The notes beneath the pieces were generated by a model. It had not been told where the DNA came from. It searched no databases and saw only the letters and a program-made list of their open reading frames with translations. This document shows, piece after piece, positions 40,797-49,677 of a stretch of DNA of 64,000 bases (position 1 is the first letter of the stretch; each line of letters begins with the position of its first letter). The DNA is from Bythopirellula sp. GTDB taxonomy: Bacteria > Planctomycetota > Planctomycetia > Pirellulales > Lacipirellulaceae. The stretch spans positions 768,001-832,000 of the forward strand of contig OZ244170.1 of the NCBI GenBank assembly GCA_965216565.1. Direction: 5' to 3'. The position numbers and the translations under genes are program-made.

Positions 40797-43700
40797 TTAA
40801 ATGCGCTTTAGTGAACTGAATACCTGCGGAAGCAGTTTCTCATCCAGCCACTGACCGTCATGAGGGTAGCCTTCCCGCTGGCTCGCAACCGTGGCAAGTT
40901 CCCTGTCCACGGTCGGTTCGACCAAGAGGTTAGTAGACTCGAATACCTTGTCGCGTGTGGTTTCATGTAACTGGGGAGTTTCGTCGATCAATGTGGTTGG
41001 CTGCTCTTCGGGGCTGTGGAACAACTCCCATGCGATCGCTGCGTCGATCAAGTCATCTGTTGATGCATTCGCAGCCGGCGATTCGAGTGCGAGGGATTGG
41101 ACAGGTGCACTATCTAAACTGGCTGCCAAAGGTGCGGGCTGACCATACTGCAATTCCCACACGCCAAGATCGTCGCCGTCGGCATCCAGGTCGTTATCGG
41201 CATCGCCGTCGGGTCCGTAGGCAGTCGCGAGGCCGACTCCCTGTTGCCAGGCCAGAAAATCGAGTCCGGTGACCAAGCCATCCTGATCGAAATCGGCCGT
41301 GACGACCTGCACTTCGAAGGCGCCGATATCTTGCACACCGTTGGAGATGCGTGCGAATCCCTCGCCCCGTTGATCGAACGTCGGGAGCAAACATCCAGAG
41401 TGCTCTCCCGTATCGACGGCGGCACCGTCGGCAAGTAGGGCCACTGTCTGCGTCGGACCGCCGTTATCGGCGAGCACGCCGGTCGGCAGAAGTGCGGAGA
41501 GGCCAGAGCTGGTAATCACTTCGGCTGTCGCTGCAAAAATGTCGGCAGGCGTTAAGCCTGTCTCTACGATCGTAGTGCTATCGAAGCGTGTGTCACCGAC
41601 AATGCCATGAGCCTGAAGGAGTGCTACAACATTGATGTCGTCAGAGGATTCTTCAAGGAGGATGGTGTCAAACGCGACGTTGCTAGTGACCATGCTGTTG
41701 GAGAGCGTGAGGGTCGATAATGTGGAAACTCCGCCGCCCGCAAGATCATCGCCCCCCTCAACGGTATTGCCGGCGACCGTGCTGCCCACCAGGATCACGT
41801 TTGTGCCAGAGATTCCTCCTCCTGCCGAATCATCGGAGCCAAACGCCCAATTTCCACTGACCGTGCTGTCTTCTAATGTGACGTCAAGTATGGCGGCGAT
41901 ACCCCCACCACGGGCGAATAGTCCACTGGCCAAATTTCCGCTCACCGTGCTGCGTAGTAGCGTGAAGTTTTTCGCCCCGTAGATTCCCCCGCCTCGAATT
42001 TTGGCCGCGTTGCCAGAGATCGTGCTGTTCTTCAAATTAAAGAGTCCATCGCTACTGATCGCCCCGCCCACTCCGTCGACGTCGCCGCCGGTTAGTGTGA
42101 GTCCAGAAATCTCCACACCGACACCTGGAACAACTACATTAGCGATTTGAAAATGGCGGTAGCCGTCGAAGGTACCAAACATGTTGTCGGTGCCATCGCC
42201 TGCGTCAATCGTCAAGAGATCGGCCCCGGGGCCGTTGATGGTGAGTTCGTCGAGGATGAGAGGAAGTTGCGAACCGATCTGGATCACCTGCTGGGTACTA
42301 AACAATGGATCGGCGAAAGTAATGACGTTAGCGCCCGCCACTTCGTTGGAAAGGATGATCGCCTCGCGGAGGGAGAGTTGGCCGGGAAAGAAAACTCCAT
42401 CGACAACGTCCGACACTGTCGAGACGATCAGCCCTTGGGATGGAAGCACCGCGGGAGTTTCGACGGCTCCAATATCGACCCGTCCCGCTAAGACTCGAGG
42501 AAACCCAACGCCTCGCTGGTCGTGGAAGACTAAACTGTCGTCGAAATTGGGGTCGCCCGCGTTGACTACGGCACTAATCGATAGAGGAAGCTGCGTGCGG
42601 GTAGGTCCACCGTTATCGGCTAACAGACCAATCAGCGGCTGGTTGTCGATATTGACAATATTGTTGCCTCCCAGCGGCGGCACATCTGGACCAAAGTAAT
42701 TGAATTGGCCCGCAAGGTTTCCGGTGCCTTCCAGGTTGTTTGCAGCTCCACCCGCCAGCTCGTTCCCCGACAGGATCGTGTTGTTCAGTGTGAGCCCGCC
42801 CGGCGCGCTCCGCTTTTCGATACCACCGCCAAAGTTTTGGGCTGTGTTCCCTGTGATTGTCGAGTTGGCAATATCGATGTCGCCAAAGCCGCCGAACTTG
42901 GAAAGGCCACCGGCCCGGTCGGCCGTGTTGCCCGTGATCGTGGCCTGGGTGATGTTGGCAGAGGCTTCGCGGGTGAAAATGGCTCCGCCTTCTAGCGCCG
43001 AGTTTCCTGCGAAAGTGCTACGGGTGATGGTTAGCCGCAGCAGCGAAGTGCTGGCAGGCCCACCGGTATAGATGGCCCCGCCGCGACCTTGCCCGCCCAG
43101 GGCCCGGCTGTCGGTAATCTCGACCTGGTCGAGCGAGAGCACTCCCCGATTGTGGATGGCTCCCCCGCCACTGCCGCCGAGGGCATCTCCTCGGGTGAGA
43201 GTCAGCCCGGAGAGGGTCGCGTCGGTTCCCAATACTATGCTGAACAACCGCGACTGATGATTGGCGTCGATCGTCAGCAGGTCGGCGCCCAGTCCCGTGA
43301 TAACCACGTCTTCTGTTAGTTCCAGTTCGCCATCACTGAGTGTGATCGTCTGCGAAGCGAGCGCCGCGTCGAAAGTTATGGTATCGGTTCCCGACTGGAA
43401 ATTGGCGATGGCGACGGCTTCTCGCAGACTAAGTTGGCCCGCAGAGTAGTCCCCATCCACCACATCTGTGGCCGTGGATACCTGGAGGCTGCCGGGCAGG
43501 TCTGCCGGTTGGAGTTCGAATGCTCCGATGTCGGTCTGAATCGAGGGTCCAGAAATATTGGGAAAATCGTGAATCGCCTGACCACGCTGATCGAGAAATC
43601 CGAAAGGACTGTCTCCCTGGTCGATAGCGGCACTACCGGGAATCAAGGCATGCGTGGGAATAGCGCCACCATTAGACAGCAAAGCTCCCAGCTTGGGATC

Positions 43701-44618
43701 GCCACCGATGAGGTTAAAGGAGTCGACATTAAGAGTGCCGAAGACGTTTTCGAATGAGGAAGCCGAATTGCCAGCGATGATGGTGCTTACCACATCAAGA
43801 TTGCCGCCACCGCTCTTAGCAATTCCGCCCCCCAGATTTCCGGCGGAGTTGTTGAAGATGGTGCCATTGTTGAGGACCGTCGCGCCGAATGCTCCGATGC
43901 CTCCCGCGTTGACCTCCGCCGTGTTGAGTGAGACGGTACTGGTTTGCAGATTGAGCGTTGCTCCTGAGCGAGCCAAAATCCCCCCGCCATCGCCACCAGG
44001 TTGACTGACGGGCAAATTCTCGTCGGTTCGCACATGATTGTCGGCGATTGTACTTGAATTGATCGACAACGCACCCGACTGCTGCAATACTCCGCCACCG
44101 TAAAAGGCGTAATTCTCGGTGATGAAAACTTGATCAAGCGCCAGGTCGGCATCAGCAAAAATAGCCCCGCCGTCCAAGTCCAATGTATCGACGTCGCCAC
44201 CAGTCAGTTTTAGTCCACTAATCGTGGTAGCCGCTTCGACGCGGAACACTCGGAAACCGTCCCCGGTGCCCGCGATGTTATCGCCGCCGTTTCCCGCGTG
44301 GAGGGTGACCTTGTCTGCGCCTGTGCCGTTGATCGTGACGTTGTCGGTGATCGTCGGCAACTGCGAGCCTAGATTGATTGTGCCCACCACTCCGGAATCG
44401 AACTGGATGGTGTCTGCTCCGGGGCTGGCATTGGCGTCGATGATTGCCTGACGCAGACTCCCCAGCCCCGAGTCGGCCGTGTTCAGCACGTTAATCGTCG
44501 CCAACATGCGGCGATCTTCGAGCGCTTCTATCTGCAAGCGGCGAGCATACGAAGATTTTGCAAAAATATGTGAACTAAGGTTGGACAGTCGGGAACGAGC
44601 AGCAAGAGGTCGTCTCAT
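40797..44618 (-). CDS. Large secreted beta-helix protein (3 x CSLREA/choice-of-anchor-Q-like modules plus dockerin-like C-terminus)
   Basis: LEDRRMLA planctomycete signal, SLRQA/SLREA x3, GGAI repeats, NGGPT..DIGA.E x3 and ADFDQDGLVTGLDFLAWQ. Confidence 0.88.
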   Translation of the reverse strand: MRRPLAARSRLSNLSSHIFAKSSYARRLQIEALEDRRMLATINVLNTADSGLGSLRQAIIDANASPGADTIQFDSGVVGTINLGSQLPTITDNVTINGTGADKVTLHAGNGGDNIAGTGDGFRVFRVEAATTISGLKLTGGDVDTLDLDGGAIFADADLALDQVFITENYAFYGGGVLQQSGALSINSSTIADNHVRTDENLPVSQPGGDGGGILARSGATLNLQTSTVSLNTAEVNAGGIGAFGATVLNNGTIFNNSAGNLGGGIAKSGGGNLDVVSTIIAGNSASSFENVFGTLNVDSFNLIGGDPKLGALLSNGGAIPTHALIPGSAAIDQGDSPFGFLDQRGQAIHDFPNISGPSIQTDIGAFELQPADLPGSLQVSTATDVVDGDYSAGQLSLREAVAIANFQSGTDTITFDAALASQTITLSDGELELTEDVVITGLGADLLTIDANHQSRLFSIVLGTDATLSGLTLTRGDALGGSGGGAIHNRGVLSLDQVEITDSRALGGQGRGGAIYTGGPASTSLLRLTITRSTFAGNSALEGGAIFTREASANITQATITGNTADRAGGLSKFGGFGDIDIANSTITGNTAQNFGGGIEKRSAPGGLTLNNTILSGNELAGGAANNLEGTGNLAGQFNYFGPDVPPLGGNNIVNIDNQPLIGLLADNGGPTRTQLPLSISAVVNAGDPNFDDSLVFHDQRGVGFPRVLAGRVDIGAVETPAVLPSQGLIVSTVSDVVDGVFFPGQLSLREAIILSNEVAGANVITFADPLFSTQQVIQIGSQLPLILDELTINGPGADLLTIDAGDGTDNMFGTFDGYRHFQIANVVVPGVGVEISGLTLTGGDVDGVGGAISSDGLFNLKNSTISGNAAKIRGGGIYGAKNFTLLRSTVSGNLASGLFARGGGIAAILDVTLEDSTVSGNWAFGSDDSAGGGISGTNVILVGSTVAGNTVEGGDDLAGGGVSTLSTLTLSNSMVTSNVAFDTILLEESSDDINVVALLQAHGIVGDTRFDSTTIVETGLTPADIFAATAEVITSSGLSALLPTGVLADNGGPTQTVALLADGAAVDTGEHSGCLLPTFDQRGEGFARISNGVQDIGAFEVQVVTADFDQDGLVTGLDFLAWQQGVGLATAYGPDGDADNDLDADGDDLGVWELQYGQPAPLAASLDSAPVQSLALESPAANASTDDLIDAAIAWELFHSPEEQPTTLIDETPQLHETTRDKVFESTNLLVEPTVDRELATVASQREGYPHDGQWLDEKLLPQVFSSLKRI

Positions 44619-44936
44619 TGGGAGCCAATCTGAGCAAAAGACGGAAAGTGACGGAGTAGCGAAAAGTCGAAAAAGACATTCCGGCACCGAACTTATCGTG
44701 GAAAGCAGTATACCCGAAGATTCGCAGCAGAGTTGTTGATTGTGATCTGAGGTTGATCTGCGAATTCCAACTCCGTTGCTCAATGCAACTTCCATCCTGC
44801 GAGTCTTCGAGGCTGGTTTGCTAATGGCAGACGACTAAACGAGTTGCGTCGCTTTAGCGCGGAGCTGAAGCAGATAGAGGGAAGACCAGACAGACCGTAG
44901 TCTTTAATCCGATGAAGAATTCAGGCGCAGGGCGAG

Positions 44937-45470
44937 TTAAACGGCAGCGCCCATCTCACGTGCCTTCTGCACGCCTACAAAACCATCGCGAGCTTTGAGG
45001 CAGGTGTGGCGAAACGCCTCGGGGTGTGGCACGCCGAACAGTCGGAAAGTTTCAACGTCGCCATTTCGGAAAACCAGATCCCCGGCTGGATACCATCCCT
45101 GGCCTGGTTGAACATCGATTTCGACGGTGTCGAACCGATCGAGCGAAACGCTCTGTTGTTCTCCGCCACCAAAGGCTTGTTCGACTAAGACACGGCGATT
45201 CGTCAGCCGGTAGCGGCGACAAAAAGGATTTTGGACGCCGAACACCACGAACGGGACTCTTGGAAGAACCATCAGAAAATAGATTGGCAAGATGATCGGC
45301 ACCGAAAGGAGAGCCAGGATTGGCACGCCAAAAACGCTGATGCCGCTGGTGGCTTCGAACATTCGGCCCCACCAACGTCCAAACCCATTAGCCGCGAGCG
45401 ATGGCCAGACGGTCATCACCGTGACTTCTTTATCAAGATCGGACACTACACCCGCGATGGCTTGGGCCAT
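44937..45470 (-). CDS. Bacterial PH-domain membrane protein
   Basis: TM segment followed by RYRLTNRRV..GDLVF. Confidence 0.75.
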   Translation of the reverse strand: MAQAIAGVVSDLDKEVTVMTVWPSLAANGFGRWWGRMFEATSGISVFGVPILALLSVPIILPIYFLMVLPRVPFVVFGVQNPFCRRYRLTNRRVLVEQAFGGGEQQSVSLDRFDTVEIDVQPGQGWYPAGDLVFRNGDVETFRLFGVPHPEAFRHTCLKARDGFVGVQKAREMGAAV

Positions 45471-45575
45471 TTCTTCCTACCCATATTCCTAAGTTCGCAC
45501 GGAAACCAATTTCCTACACCCTGTGTAGGGACGTAAATTACCACACAGATAATATGTCGGCTAGGGGAGGGGGGG

Positions 45576-46577
45576 CTAGGTTCTAGAGCGAGACAGAAGC
45601 CCACCGACGAGGGCCCAGCTCAACAGGCTCACTATGCCCGGTTCGGGCACCGACGCGACCGCTGCCAAAGGTGCAGTCGTAGCCCCGGCAAACGTTGAAA
45701 TACTCGAACCTGCTTGAATTTGCCACTCCAGAAAATCAAGTCCATCCACGCGTGTGTCAAAATATGCGTCTCCGGCGATTTGCAGGGCAGCGTTCCCCGT
45801 TGTTCCGTAGCCGATATTCCATGCGGTCAGGTCGTCGGAATCGACGTCTAGATCGCCATCGAAATCGGCACTGTAATCGGGTGCCAAGTCATCCAGTCGA
45901 TCATCCACCCAATCTTGGGCTGCGTTGCGGGCAGCAGTAGCAGAACCTAACGTGCCGAAAACTACATAAAATGGCTTGGAGCGGTCGAGGGAGTTCATGC
46001 GAGTACGCAGGGCAACCAGGTAAATCCCATCCACTGGGTTGGTACCGGAGACGCCGTCGTCCATTTCCCAGTCGCGATGTCGGTGTATTGCGCCAAGTTG
46101 ATCGGTGTTTTCGAAGATTGCCCCAGTTTTTAGAGTCGGTGAACCGTCAATGATAACGAGCCCACTGGCTAATGTTTCGAGCGCGAATAGATAATTCGCG
46201 GTCGGAGTCGCACCAAAATCGACACTCCCCACGCCATCCCAATACATAAAGTTGGAAGTGTAACCGTCAATCTTCATCGGTAAAAAGTCGAACTCCAGGC
46301 CTGTGTTGGCCGGTAGGGCTTCAGCATCGGCAGGCATGTCTGGGTTGCCAACTCCCAATGAATTCCAGCCGGGATCGTTGATCGAAAAATTGCTATCGAA
46401 ATCTAGGGCATAGGTGCGTTCTCCCAGGGTCCACTGATTGGAACTAAAATCTGCACTTCCGTTTGTCAATCGACCGGAGAAGTCTTGCACCAAGATGTCC
46501 GAATGCTGGGCCAGCGCGAGCATGGGCAAACCAGCTAGCGTAATGAAAGTGAGAATGGCATATCTGACTGAATACAT
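45576..46577 (-). CDS. PEP-CTERM protein with His-motif domain and dockerin-like repeat
   Basis: Signal peptide|QHSD, YWDG, IHRH, DGIYL, ADFDGDLDVD and VPEP+TM. Confidence 0.85.
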   Translation of the reverse strand: MYSVRYAILTFITLAGLPMLALAQHSDILVQDFSGRLTNGSADFSSNQWTLGERTYALDFDSNFSINDPGWNSLGVGNPDMPADAEALPANTGLEFDFLPMKIDGYTSNFMYWDGVGSVDFGATPTANYLFALETLASGLVIIDGSPTLKTGAIFENTDQLGAIHRHRDWEMDDGVSGTNPVDGIYLVALRTRMNSLDRSKPFYVVFGTLGSATAARNAAQDWVDDRLDDLAPDYSADFDGDLDVDSDDLTAWNIGYGTTGNAALQIAGDAYFDTRVDGLDFLEWQIQAGSSISTFAGATTAPLAAVASVPEPGIVSLLSWALVGGLLSRSRT

Positions 46578-46659
46578 GATGATCTGTTCCTGTTATTGAA
46601 TTCTAAAAACAAGGCGGCCCAGTCCCTACGAGTTGGCCAGGACCGCCTTGTGCTAAAGA

Positions 46660-47508
46660 CTAGGATTTCGTTGTCCTATAACGCGAAACAGCAGTAAGTC
46701 CCAGTGCCATAAATGCAATTAAGCCGGTTGTCGGCTCGGGAACGACAATGTTGTCTTCCACGTATTCAACGGCTTCTTCATAAAAGGCAAAGTCTTTGCC
46801 CAAAGCCACTGCATCCGTGGTGTTTCCTTCTTCCAGTGCTTCTAGAGCCTCTTCCACTTCGTGGGCGTCTGCCCCATTGGTGATCAGTTCGTCGACCAGC
46901 AACACGACATAGAAATTGTCGGAGGTTGTCAATGTGTCGACATCGACCACGGGTGAAATTAGATAGACACCGTCAGCAGGAATCGCATTGGGATCTGAGT
47001 TTTCGAGAATAAACTCCGGATGACCATCCAAAAAACCGTTCGAGTTTGTCGTTGCAAAGCCTGAGGAAGGCTCGAACTCGAACGTTGTATTCACCGGTGC
47101 GGGACTGAAATCTACAGCACCGATTCCATCCCAATAGAATAGGTCGGAAGATGCGCCATCCACCGTGAAAGTGGTGGCAGTGGCACTGACGTCGGCCAAG
47201 CCAGGCAATGCGCTTGCGCCTAGTGCAGCCAGCTCGGCGGGATCGCTATAAAATCCTGGTTCATCAGACTCGTAATCGGGAGGATCAACGAGTCCAGTTC
47301 CCGGAATCATGATCGATTCGAAAGCGCTGACTCCCAGGCTGAACAATTCGTTATTCGGATCGCCGATGTCTTCGGCAGAACCAACCGCTACTTGTCCACC
47401 TACGTCAGCCAGCAACACGTCGCTGTGCTGAGCGTAGACGGCCGAGGAGGGGGCCATCACAAGAGTAATCGCTAGGATTAGTTTTGGGTCTTTAATAGTT
47501 GAAAACAT
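46660..47508 (-). CDS. PEP-CTERM protein with His-motif domain (paralogue of its neighbour)
   Basis: Signal peptide|QHSD, YWDG, LDGH, DGVYL and VPEPTT+TM. ATG at 47508. Confidence 0.85.
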   Translation of the reverse strand: MFSTIKDPKLILAITLVMAPSSAVYAQHSDVLLADVGGQVAVGSAEDIGDPNNELFSLGVSAFESIMIPGTGLVDPPDYESDEPGFYSDPAELAALGASALPGLADVSATATTFTVDGASSDLFYWDGIGAVDFSPAPVNTTFEFEPSSGFATTNSNGFLDGHPEFILENSDPNAIPADGVYLISPVVDVDTLTTSDNFYVVLLVDELITNGADAHEVEEALEALEEGNTTDAVALGKDFAFYEEAVEYVEDNIVVPEPTTGLIAFMALGLTAVSRYRTTKS

Positions 47509-47680
47509 TATTCTGTATAACCTTAGTTGAATAATCAGGATGAACTTAAAAATATCTGCTGCGCAGTGATGCACAGGACAGTAACTCTTTCGAAGTACTG
47601 AGCACGCCGGCGCGCACTCGTAACACTGCAACCAGAGAGTGGTTGCAAAATTGAAAATCGCGTTGCGAATAACCTGATGT

Positions 47681-48421
47681 CTAGCGAACTACAGCCTGCG
47701 CGAAATTGGAATTCTGGTCTCCCTCATCGCACCAAGCGGCAATATCATCCGCCGGAATCGATTTGACATGGCCATCCGCGTAAAGATAGTTAGCTACGTC
47801 GCCCTGATGACGGGTGACTGCTAACTGGCTCTGCACGGCTTTCCAAACGAGACCTTCGTTATCCTTGTCGTAGACATTCGTTTCGCTAAACCAAGTATCT
47901 GACTCCACATGATCGAACCTGGTTCCGAGGCCGAATTGATTTGCCTCGAACATCAGGATCGTATTGTGAGTTTGCGCCAGATGATTGAAGTTGTCAGCGA
48001 AGCCTGGGGGGCTGTCGACAAAATCTCCACCCAATGTCGTCTTGGGCGGCGGAGGTTCAACGAGATAACCGTTCATCGCATAGCTGGTCCCCGGAAAGTC
48101 CGGGGTTTTCGCCTTCTCGATGAGTTCGATGTCTTCCGGGCAGAACCGCATCTTGTCTACGTTCTCCAGCCAAGGAGAAAGCTCATAGATCCAAGAACGG
48201 TCCTTCGCATGATTATGGCTTGTTAGCGGGAACATCCCGTCGTGCGTATCCACATGTTGGTGAATCGCCAATCCGATTTGGCGCATATTGTTCGCACATT
48301 CCATTCGTCGGGCAGCCCCACGGGCAGCCTGAACGGCAGGAAGCAACAAAGCAATTAGCACACCAATAATGGCGACGACAACGAGTAATTCGACTAACGT
48401 AAACCCATGACGCATGCGCAT
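47681..48421 (-). CDS. Short DUF1559 protein (pilin-like N-terminus, H-X9-DG-type motif)
   Basis: [22 protein letters not shown] and [24 protein letters not shown] before ATG 48421. Confidence 0.9.
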
Positions 48422-48543
48422 GGTAGACCTCGAATAATTCGATTCTCTGAATCTCCTTGCATGATTGCCCTCGGTTCTATTTTTCGAAGGCAACAGCAAT
48501 AGACAGTCGAGCGCAGGCCCGACCGACAACTTCGCAACGCGAG

Positions 48544-48954
48544 TTATGCGAGAGGAGGACCGCGAGCGAGATGGCTCTCGGGAACAAAAAGAGGCGAAAT
48601 CTGCTCAGAGGCGGGGATTTCTGTACCTAGCTCGGTGACAACTTCGTCTAGGGTGAAGTCAAAGACGGGCGTCTGCGCCTGCGTCAAGAATTCGCAAATC
48701 GTGCAATCGTTTTCGATTGAACTGAATTTGGCCTGCTTGTGGCTAGCGAGGTGCGATCCACAGCATGCAGTGACGACAACACGCGAGCAGCTTTGCCCAT
48801 GACCAGCGTCTTCACAGGCAAGCTGAGTGCCGTGGTCGTGGTGAACGTGCCAGAGATCGTGCAGCCCGTAACCCAGCACGCCCGCGGAGCCATAAATCAG
48901 CAACAATACAGCGGCAATAAAGCGTTGCGGGCGTGATCGTTGGCAGGAGAACAT
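48544..48954 (-). CDS. DUF2946/CruR-like protein: TM, His/Cys-rich, CxxC, C-terminal RGPP
   Basis: [18 protein letters not shown]..43 aa..RGPPLA*. Confidence 0.78.
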
Positions 48955-49054
48955 GGGCCGGACTATATGCTAAGTGTACAAAAAGCAGTGCTCGAGTCTG
49001 CTGATTGTAGGGTCTTCGTGTGCAGAGGTCAATAAAAGTCCAGCCTAGTCGAAA

Positions 49055-49528
49055 TCAGGCCAATGGGGCGTCGTTTTGCTCGACCAAGGCACTCAGATAA
49101 AGCAGGCTGGAGCCTTCGGCCCGGTTTTTTCTGCTGGTCAGCATACTATGGGCAGCTTTCAGCACGTCGCGACGACTTACCTGTCCCATGAGCACACCAT
49201 CTTCCAAGACCGGCAGTCGTCGGTATGGCGTGAGCAAGAATAATTGCGCGATGGAAAGCAAATGGGTATCGGGCTCGATCGTCTGGGCCTCGGTATCCAT
49301 GAATAGGCGAACTTCGCTAGAGGGCAGTTGCTCGTAAGCGGCGTCCATTATGACCTGCATCGAACATTTCTCGGAGAAGACGCCCAGGTATCTGCCGTTA
49401 GAATCGACAACCGGGGCACCGGAGATGCGATTTCTCAGCAACATGCTGACTGCTTCCATGACATCCATTTCAGGACGCAAAGTGACGAGCTTCTTAACCA
49501 TGCAATCGCGAGCCGAAATTTGAGTCAT
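49055..49528 (-). CDS. CBS-pair domain protein
   Basis: ISGAPVVD..GVFSEK and RRLPVLE..GQVSRRDVL. ATG at 49528 with an AGGA RBS. Confidence 0.9.
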   Translation of the reverse strand: MTQISARDCMVKKLVTLRPEMDVMEAVSMLLRNRISGAPVVDSNGRYLGVFSEKCSMQVIMDAAYEQLPSSEVRLFMDTEAQTIEPDTHLLSIAQLFLLTPYRRLPVLEDGVLMGQVSRRDVLKAAHSMLTSRKNRAEGSSLLYLSALVEQNDAPLA

Positions 49529-49677
49529 TGCATTCTTCCTAACCAAGAAAAGTAAATAGTCTCGTGAGCAACCAGCAACCGAGAATGGCATTTGCTGAGA
49601 AAAGTAATTCCAGCTGCTCAGTCCCCAGCATAACATTCCTGGTAGAGGCACCGCCAGTAATGTTTGGCAAAAATGTC

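Follow-up and report, generated by a model that had tools for sequence, protein, structure and literature searches.

A putative zinc-responsive ribosome-arrest leader at the head of a DUF1559 and PEP-CTERM operon in Bythopirellula sp.

The operon and its leader

The window analyzed here is a stretch of 64,000 nucleotides (nt) from Bythopirellula sp. (GCA_965216565.1, contig OZ244170.1, positions 768,001-832,000), and its minus strand encodes four co-oriented genes at 45576-48954: a leader open reading frame (ORF), a short DUF1559 gene, and the genes for two PEP-CTERM proteins (1 and 2) (Table 1). The four genes form one operon, of which the leader is the first gene. The original prediction, made from the letters of the DNA, had described this gene order and a leader composed of a transmembrane helix, a His stretch, CTIC, a 43-residue spacer, and RGPP two codons before the stop, and both descriptions are confirmed. 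On balance, we interpret the system as a zinc-responsive arrest leader whose role would be to turn on the genes for a pilin-like protein and for two surface proteins predicted to scavenge zinc.

Table 1. Positions of the operon's features within the window (minus strand throughout).
Feature	Position	Strand	Remarks
Sigma-70-like promoter candidate	49004..49032	-	50 nt before leader ATG; 10/12 matches (pattern match)
Arrest leader ORF	48544..48954	-	136 amino acids; hydrophobic helix, His-rich stretch, CxxC, 43-residue spacer, RGPP-LA-stop
Leader hydrophobic helix	48862..48918	-	Residues 13-31; invariant H32 comes next
Leader CxxC	48694..48705	-	CTIC, residues 84-87; predicted metal ligands
Leader RGPP arrest motif	48553..48564	-	Residues 131-134; from sequence
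Intergenic region	48422..48543	-	122 nt; predicted hairpins (minimum free energy folds, without shuffle control)
Short DUF1559 prepilin-like protein	47681..48421	-	246 amino acids
PEP-CTERM protein 1	46660..47508	-	282 amino acids; signal-peptide-like N-terminus, H28-S-D30 ... D161-G-H163, predicted beta-sandwich
PEP-CTERM protein 2	45576..46577	-	333 amino acids; same domain, H25-S-D27 ... H165-R-H167, then Asp-rich dockerin-like region
Terminator-like hairpin	45513..45537	-	3' of last gene; pattern match only

The most hydrophobic 19-residue segment of the leader begins at residue 13 (mean hydropathy of 1.94). The genome encodes 18 ORFs of 50-260 amino acids ending in R[AG]PP, four of which also have a nearby CxxC. 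H32, C84, C87, and A130-R-G-P-P134 are invariant in an alignment of the leader with 22 homologues (the 98%-identical P0001 being excluded), so that the RGPP and CxxC motifs on which the original prediction was built are conserved. Across the loci fetched from other genomes (L numbers below), the spacer among 104 unique leaders (selected for an R[AG]PP end) measures exactly 43 residues in 58 and 42-45 residues in 96, and an R[AG]PP end was also found in all 60 leader loci taken from a search of the order without that filter. Given the general length of the ribosomal exit tunnel, a spacer of 43 residues would place the CxxC near the tunnel exit. In a broader profile search, the leader family was identified in 128 of 251 genomes drawn from the order and in 17 of 301 drawn from the phylum.

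The closest functional parallel is CruR (Bp2923) of Bordetella pertussis, a DUF2946 (PF11162) protein in which a spacer of 45 residues is kept within one or two residues and both the CxxC and the spacing are required for regulation (PMC9426467; here and below, statements on published work refer to the parts of each source that were covered). Arrest at RAPP and RGPP motifs, and of CruR at its RAPP, has been demonstrated in vitro (PMC12992588), and a few CruR homologues were reported from Planctomycetes (PMC9426467). As in CruR, the leader is the first gene of its operon, has an export-type N-terminus, carries the CxxC at a fixed distance from a C-terminal RxPP, and precedes a long intergenic region and cargo suited to metal uptake; the distance from leader to GFTL motif has a median of 192 nt in 74 loci, and the cruR-bfrG gap is 162 bp (PMC9426467). 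Unlike CruR, the leader has RGPP, a conserved His cluster after the helix, a cargo of pilin-like DUF1559 and PEP-CTERM proteins, and a family context of zinc genes; zinc has only a moderate effect on the CruR operon (PMC9426467). The leader itself has no Pfam or NCBIfam match, and PF11162 gives weak matches in six of 23 leader relatives (best E of 0.001), the best score (22.3 bits) lying below the gathering cut-off (23.7 bits); a DUF2946 cluster is among the ESM Atlas look-alikes of the leader at 0.96. The match to DUF2946 and CruR that had been proposed therefore holds for architecture and spacing and not for formal DUF2946 membership. By analogy with these systems, the leader would very likely act as a ribosome-arrest peptide, and it is also likely to be metal-responsive.

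The DUF1559 clade and the PEP-CTERM proteins

The most likely start of the DUF1559 gene is the ATG at 48421, which gives a gap of 122 nt between leader and DUF1559 gene; an alternative, translationally coupled start (TTG, 48529) was considered and rejected, because the N_methyl motif (residues 1-27) fits the ATG at 48421. The protein matches PF07596 above cut-off (E of 3.4e-15) and has the H-X9-DG C-terminus, with TIGR04294 falling just under its cut-off (18.6 vs 19 bits). A search with its structural model (predicted local distance difference test, pLDDT, of 92.4) gave no fold match at E<=0.001 and two weak type IV pilin rows. Among the 41 DUF1559-like genes of the genome, this gene is the shortest and the only one with an RxPP-ending ORF within 600 nt upstream. 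Three residues of the short DUF1559 family (H137, H171, and D182, numbered in the trimmed domain) are invariant.

PEP-CTERM proteins 1 and 2 are paralogous and are the sole copies of their domain (hereafter the His-motif domain) in the genome. Both have a signal-peptide-like start and a visible PEP-CTERM-type tail, which in the first protein scores 14.9 bits against a Pfam cut-off of 20.7 and in the second gives no match; PF07589 matches 23 of 34 members of the domain family at E<=0.1, and Dockerin_1 matches eight of 34. This bears out the earlier description of two PEP-CTERM proteins, presumed to be surface-anchored, and the exosortase EpsH is encoded in the genome. No Pfam or NCBIfam model covers the His-motif domain itself in the 34 members scanned, which matched in their tail and dockerin parts only (NF038134 and TIGR03769 included among the hidden Markov models without a match), and a sequence search of the PDB returned nothing below E 0.25. 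PEP-CTERM protein 1 is modeled as a confident beta-sandwich (pLDDT of 89.1), for which fold searches recovered generic beta-sandwiches only (Foldseek TM-score by query length <=0.27; best Z of 6.8).

The domain is marked by its His residues: among 117 domains, [HD]xH is present in 99, a strict HxD in 58, and some N-terminal His in 96, with [HD]xH standing about 130-140 residues after the N-terminal His. This pattern, to which HSD...HRH of PEP-CTERM protein 2 conforms, matches the HxD/HxH zinc motif of ZnuE/F/G and CmrA of C. diphtheriae, in which the bracket spans about 150 amino acids (PMC12445094). As predicted for the surface proteins of the operon, ZepA/All3515, ZnuE/F/G, and CmrA are exported, surface-sorted, and His-bearing, and these known proteins acquire zinc; unlike them, they are under the control of Zur and not of a leader, and they have no significant profile match to the His-motif domain. 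Homology of the domain to ZepA was considered and rejected (no NF040463 match; profile comparison of 0.4%). Choice-of-anchor-M proteins with the same bracket replace the His-motif domain behind the leader or DUF1559 gene in three loci. Based on motif and context, it is somewhat probable that the surface proteins bind zinc.

A search of 41 genomes with the short DUF1559 protein gave 44 further matches, and 40 of these loci were fetched. The His-motif domain adjoins the short DUF1559 gene in 38 of the 40, and directly upstream of the DUF1559 gene there is an RxPP leader in 18 loci, a second leader type (type B) in 17, neither in three, and a contig end in two. Searching in the reverse direction recovered the His-motif domain from 10 additional genomes belonging to other classes, all 10 with a short prepilin-like gene directly upstream; three of these have the leader, two an adjacent Fur-like gene recognized by eye, and four a shared, conserved AT-rich element, while one lies at a contig edge. 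A FastTree phylogeny of 151 DUF1559 sequences, with one paralogue as root, places 71 of the 74 domain-linked sequences within a clade of 75 (support of 1.0), and the other 40 sequences of the Bythopirellula genome all lie outside this clade. One DUF1559 clade is thus linked to the His-motif PEP-CTERM domain, and the predicted synteny of leader, DUF1559 subfamily, and PEP-CTERM genes is conserved.

Longer DUF1559 proteins encoded behind the leader make up a second group, with a separate clade of its own (19 of 26 sequences). In these loci (L062, L063, L065, L066, L070, L071, L073, L074, L113, L133, L135, and others) a DUF1559 gene rich in His/Cys/Glu motifs stands alone behind the leader, and its pilin may itself bind metal. 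In L093, L094, L095, and L097, where the prepilin gene has no leader, an AT-rich palindrome-like element overlaps promoter-like sequence and represents a different candidate operator.

The type B leader is a protein of about 200 amino acids (PCxxxxCGC...CW..CCC) that has PPP at its C-terminus and an invariant Cys some 50 residues ahead of this motif (L015-L018, L020, L023, L024, L027, L028, L030, L033-L039, and L101-L110). Apart from the short DUF1559 clade, it heads DUF1559 plus PepSY_TM, DUF4198, or porin-like genes. It was identified in 27 of 301 phylum genomes (the weaker matches spanning the N-terminal part only) and not in the Bythopirellula genome, no Pfam match was obtained for the two members scanned, and the palindrome described below is never present. 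Type B is possibly a leader for another metal.

Cargo and transcriptional control in relatives

The genes behind relatives of the leader were inspected in 60 test loci, picked from about 150 places in the order search so as to be spread over the ranking, with new genomes and larger contigs preferred. A prepilin-type gene occupies one of the first two positions in 41 of these loci, and the His-motif domain occurs within the first four in 27. The leader family has several cargoes, of which the DUF1559 and PEP-CTERM genes are one. An all3515/ZepA gene (NF040463 above cut-off) is directly preceded by an additional leader copy in five loci. ZepA is a PEP-CTERM exoprotein with a demonstrated role in zinc uptake (PMC10957091), and it has operons and leader type in common with the DUF1559/PEP-CTERM module. 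Leaders were also found directly before ZigA (NF038288; 610 vs cut-off of 600) and directly before two choice-of-anchor-M PEP-CTERM proteins; one module (L032) ends in a ZIP-family transporter gene. In the phylum sample, two genomes have a leader heading a porin-like gene and a ZnuA/ATP-binding cassette (ABC) transporter operon, and a third leader precedes the same first gene where a contig ends. Pfam scanning of 55 of the 108 downstream ORFs gave no match to CopC, PCu(A)C, SCO, YcnI, or multicopper oxidase; the copper-homeostasis cargo of a CruR-type system was not seen, and zinc markers were found instead.

The RxPP leader also heads a conserved operon of DUF58, transglutaminase, MoxR ATPase, and ArsP_1 permease genes (L059, L060, L123, L140, L141, L147, L155, L162, and L165), three loci of which (L123, L147, and L165) have the Zur-like palindrome described next; this suggests that the permease group imports metal. 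In L061, L064, and L069, the leader is followed by a full-length DUF1559 gene, a beta-propeller gene, and a gene for an HGDH-containing lipoprotein (weak AztD match, E of 3.4e-05).

A 17-bp palindrome that resembles the predicted Zur box of Desulfovibrio lies upstream of many leader loci. With a matrix built from 15 sites (score >=18), it was detected in 14 of 60 later loci, in none of 285 control windows, and at none of 29 type B leaders. The exact pattern occurs at nine sites in five relatives: five at the module (which were themselves used to build the pattern), two between a Fur-family gene and zepA, and two elsewhere. The module is flanked by a Fur-family gene and zepA in L088, L089, and L090, and there are genomes in which the position of the leader at this module is occupied by a Fur-family gene. 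The Fur-family genes of L086, L088, L089, and L090 belong to a distinct subgroup (57-84% mutual identity) that stands beside zepA and the palindrome, with MerC next in L089; this subgroup and the palindrome are a candidate planctomycete Zur and its operator.

The Fur subfamily of these relatives was not found in the Bythopirellula genome (best identity of 25-30%). A genome-wide scan for the palindrome (score >=13.5) gave 41 sites vs 16 in a shuffled sequence and no clear regulon, and the genome's one ZnuA-family operon has no Zur-like box nearby. With neither the palindrome nor the Fur subfamily in evidence, the leader is the only visible control of the operon in this genome.

Because relatives of the leader stand before known zinc-uptake genes, the leader itself is likely to be zinc-sensing: the gene context of the family points to zinc, not copper, and zinc is probably the main metal sensed. 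The metal-scavenging function put forward in the original prediction is supported and can be refined to zinc, with the DUF1559 and PEP-CTERM genes as one cargo among several. Alternatively, the same arrest switch could respond to copper, as in CruR, to cobalt or nickel, or to several metals, the zinc genes being the context of some members only. Both characterized DUF2946 leaders respond to copper, the table of genes downstream of RAPP motifs is dominated by copper genes (PMC12992588), and the His-motif domain and short DUF1559 gene also occur behind the Cys-rich type B leader, which has PepSY_TM and DUF4198 among its other cargoes; the ESM Atlas name of a look-alike of the His-motif domain (see below) also favors copper. 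However, with the copper genes named above missing from the scanned ORFs, and with ZepA, ZigA, ZnuA, ZIP, and the palindrome all indicating zinc, we consider copper or another metal unlikely as the main signal.

Proposed mechanism and its alternatives

By analogy with CruR, the ribosome would stay stalled at RGPP when zinc is scarce, and the stalled ribosome would block a premature, probably Rho-dependent, termination of transcription in the 122-nt spacer, allowing the downstream genes to be expressed; Rho is encoded in the genome. Plentiful zinc would be captured by the CxxC and His residues once these lie just beyond the exit tunnel; the chain would then fold and pull, and release of the stall would let transcription terminate, turning the operon off. 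Expression under zinc limitation is, by this analogy, quite probable. The PEP-CTERM proteins would be exported and anchored at the surface, where they would bind zinc via HxD/HxH-type pockets. The weakest step is that of the short DUF1559 protein, which might enter a pilus-type fiber that helps to display the PEP-CTERM proteins or to pass on the metal; a part for the pilin in zinc uptake is rather tentative. A hairpin in the 122-nt spacer that masks the ribosome-binding site (RBS) was also sought, and the Shine-Dalgarno-like GAGG is not clearly sequestered in minimum free energy folds (without shuffle control).

The opposite polarity is represented by CutF of Rhodobacter capsulatus, a DUF2946 protein which, like the leader, contains Cys, has a proline-rich tail, and controls the next gene (bioRxiv 10.1101/2025.02.05.636593). 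In a CutF-like scheme, Cys and His residues would detect metal from the periplasmic side while the leader is being exported, stalling would become stronger with metal, and excess metal would turn the operon on for surface sequestration. This accords with the conserved N-terminal hydrophobic helix, with the requirement of CutF for its signal peptide and its stalling on copper, and with the resemblance of the permease cargo to efflux-annotated families. In CutF, however, copper-induced stalling opens an RBS hairpin for a detoxification oxidase (bioRxiv 10.1101/2025.02.05.636593), whereas the cargo here suggests limitation and no RBS-masking hairpin is clear: ZepA, ZigA, and ZnuABC are limitation genes, the palindrome at the permease loci L123, L147, and L165 fits repression by metal, and RGPP alone arrests (PMC12992588), so that the stalled state is the expected default. 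Induction by excess metal is therefore quite unlikely. It is very unlikely that the leader instead monitors secretion or membrane insertion in the manner of SecM/ApdP-type peptides, coupling surface-protein synthesis to export capacity with the His/Cys residues being secondary: the first RAPP/RGPP peptides to be discovered lie upstream of sec genes (PMC12992588) and most of the cargo is exported, but 96 of 104 leaders keep the CxxC at an almost constant distance, the cargoes include the cytoplasmic ZigA, and other genomes have a Fur-family gene in place of the leader at this module.

Several observations weigh against a zinc-limitation switch. The zinc markers all come from relatives and none from this operon, at whose promoter the Zur-like palindrome was sought and not found; no ZepA match was obtained in the Bythopirellula genome, in a search without positive control. 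The CxxC is missing from two of the first 18 leaders and from two of the 104 overall, and the leader profile itself contains the CxxC and RxPP motifs and the genomes are related, so that motif conservation is partly circular. PEP-CTERM protein 1 has DGH (DxH) in place of HxH, and in hhalign comparisons the His-motif domain shows no significant similarity to ZepA (0.4%) or to choice-of-anchor M (1.8%, from a shallow template of four sequences, the alignment falling on the HxH...GxY stretch). In the ESM Atlas, the closest look-alike of the domain (0.91) carries the automatic name "metallo-mystery pair four-Cys protein", a family that we take to be copper-linked. At six of the 60 loci the leader is followed by an ArsP_1 permease that resembles efflux-annotated families, below their cut-offs. 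No rut site could be shown, the C-over-G ratio at third codon positions near RxPP being 1.15-1.25 vs 1.32 in the DUF1559 body. The Fur-family genes are termed Zur from context only, and the Desulfovibrio Zur box is itself a prediction (PMC545781). Finally, CutF indicates that the DUF2946 family can act in the opposite direction (bioRxiv 10.1101/2025.02.05.636593).

The original prediction had held the arrangement to be undescribed. A survey of RAPP/RGPP upstream ORFs (uORFs) already contains the adjacency of RAPP and DUF1559: DUF1559 is enriched downstream, with "DUF1559 domain-containing protein" among the top-30 downstream classes in the source table of its Fig. 4B (112 vs 68, 6.5-fold), and rows of the uORF list name a "zinc-regulated TonB-dependent receptor" (PMC12992588). 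The survey's main text makes no mention of DUF1559, PEP-CTERM, or zinc, and the parts covered contain no planctomycete leader (PMC12992588); three supplementary files of the CruR paper have no DUF1559 entry (PMC9426467). Searches of the mostly open-access literature turned up no description of the link to zinc, of the His-motif domain, or of Fur-family control as a substitute for the leader, and further overlap with the supplements of the survey is possible. In the papers found, metal-sensing arrest peptides have so far been shown only for copper.

A broader and more tentative proposal is that planctomycetes run much of their zinc-starvation response via a zinc sensor in the nascent chain, a CxxC-43-RxPP arrest peptide that is copied before single zinc-uptake genes and can replace or stack on Zur-type repression, and that one DUF1559 clade forms a zinc-harvesting pilus acting together with a previously undescribed family of zinc-binding PEP-CTERM proteins. 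If true, the zinc version would mean that an arrest scaffold has been retuned by metal and that one module can be controlled interchangeably through ribosome stalling or through Fur-family repression. A clade of DUF1559, a large pilin-like family of planctomycetes, would likewise gain a first testable function, and the His-motif domain would become a new candidate for zinc scavenging at the surface. Being short, the leader lends itself to tests in vitro and with reporters in E. coli.

As to the surroundings of the operon, three sigma-70-like promoter sites were found vs 3.1 expected, a count not above chance, and it is solely by its position that the candidate at 49004..49032 is favored. The upstream flank (49055-49531) holds a gene for a CBS-pair protein, and the downstream flank (44937-45470) a gene with a weak match to a bacterial PH-domain protein; a PH-like gene resembling the latter lies a few kb past the module in several relatives. 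Beyond it, 40797-44795 encodes a large extracellular repeat protein of the planctomycete kind, whose C-terminus contains a dockerin-like stretch resembling the one in PEP-CTERM protein 2.

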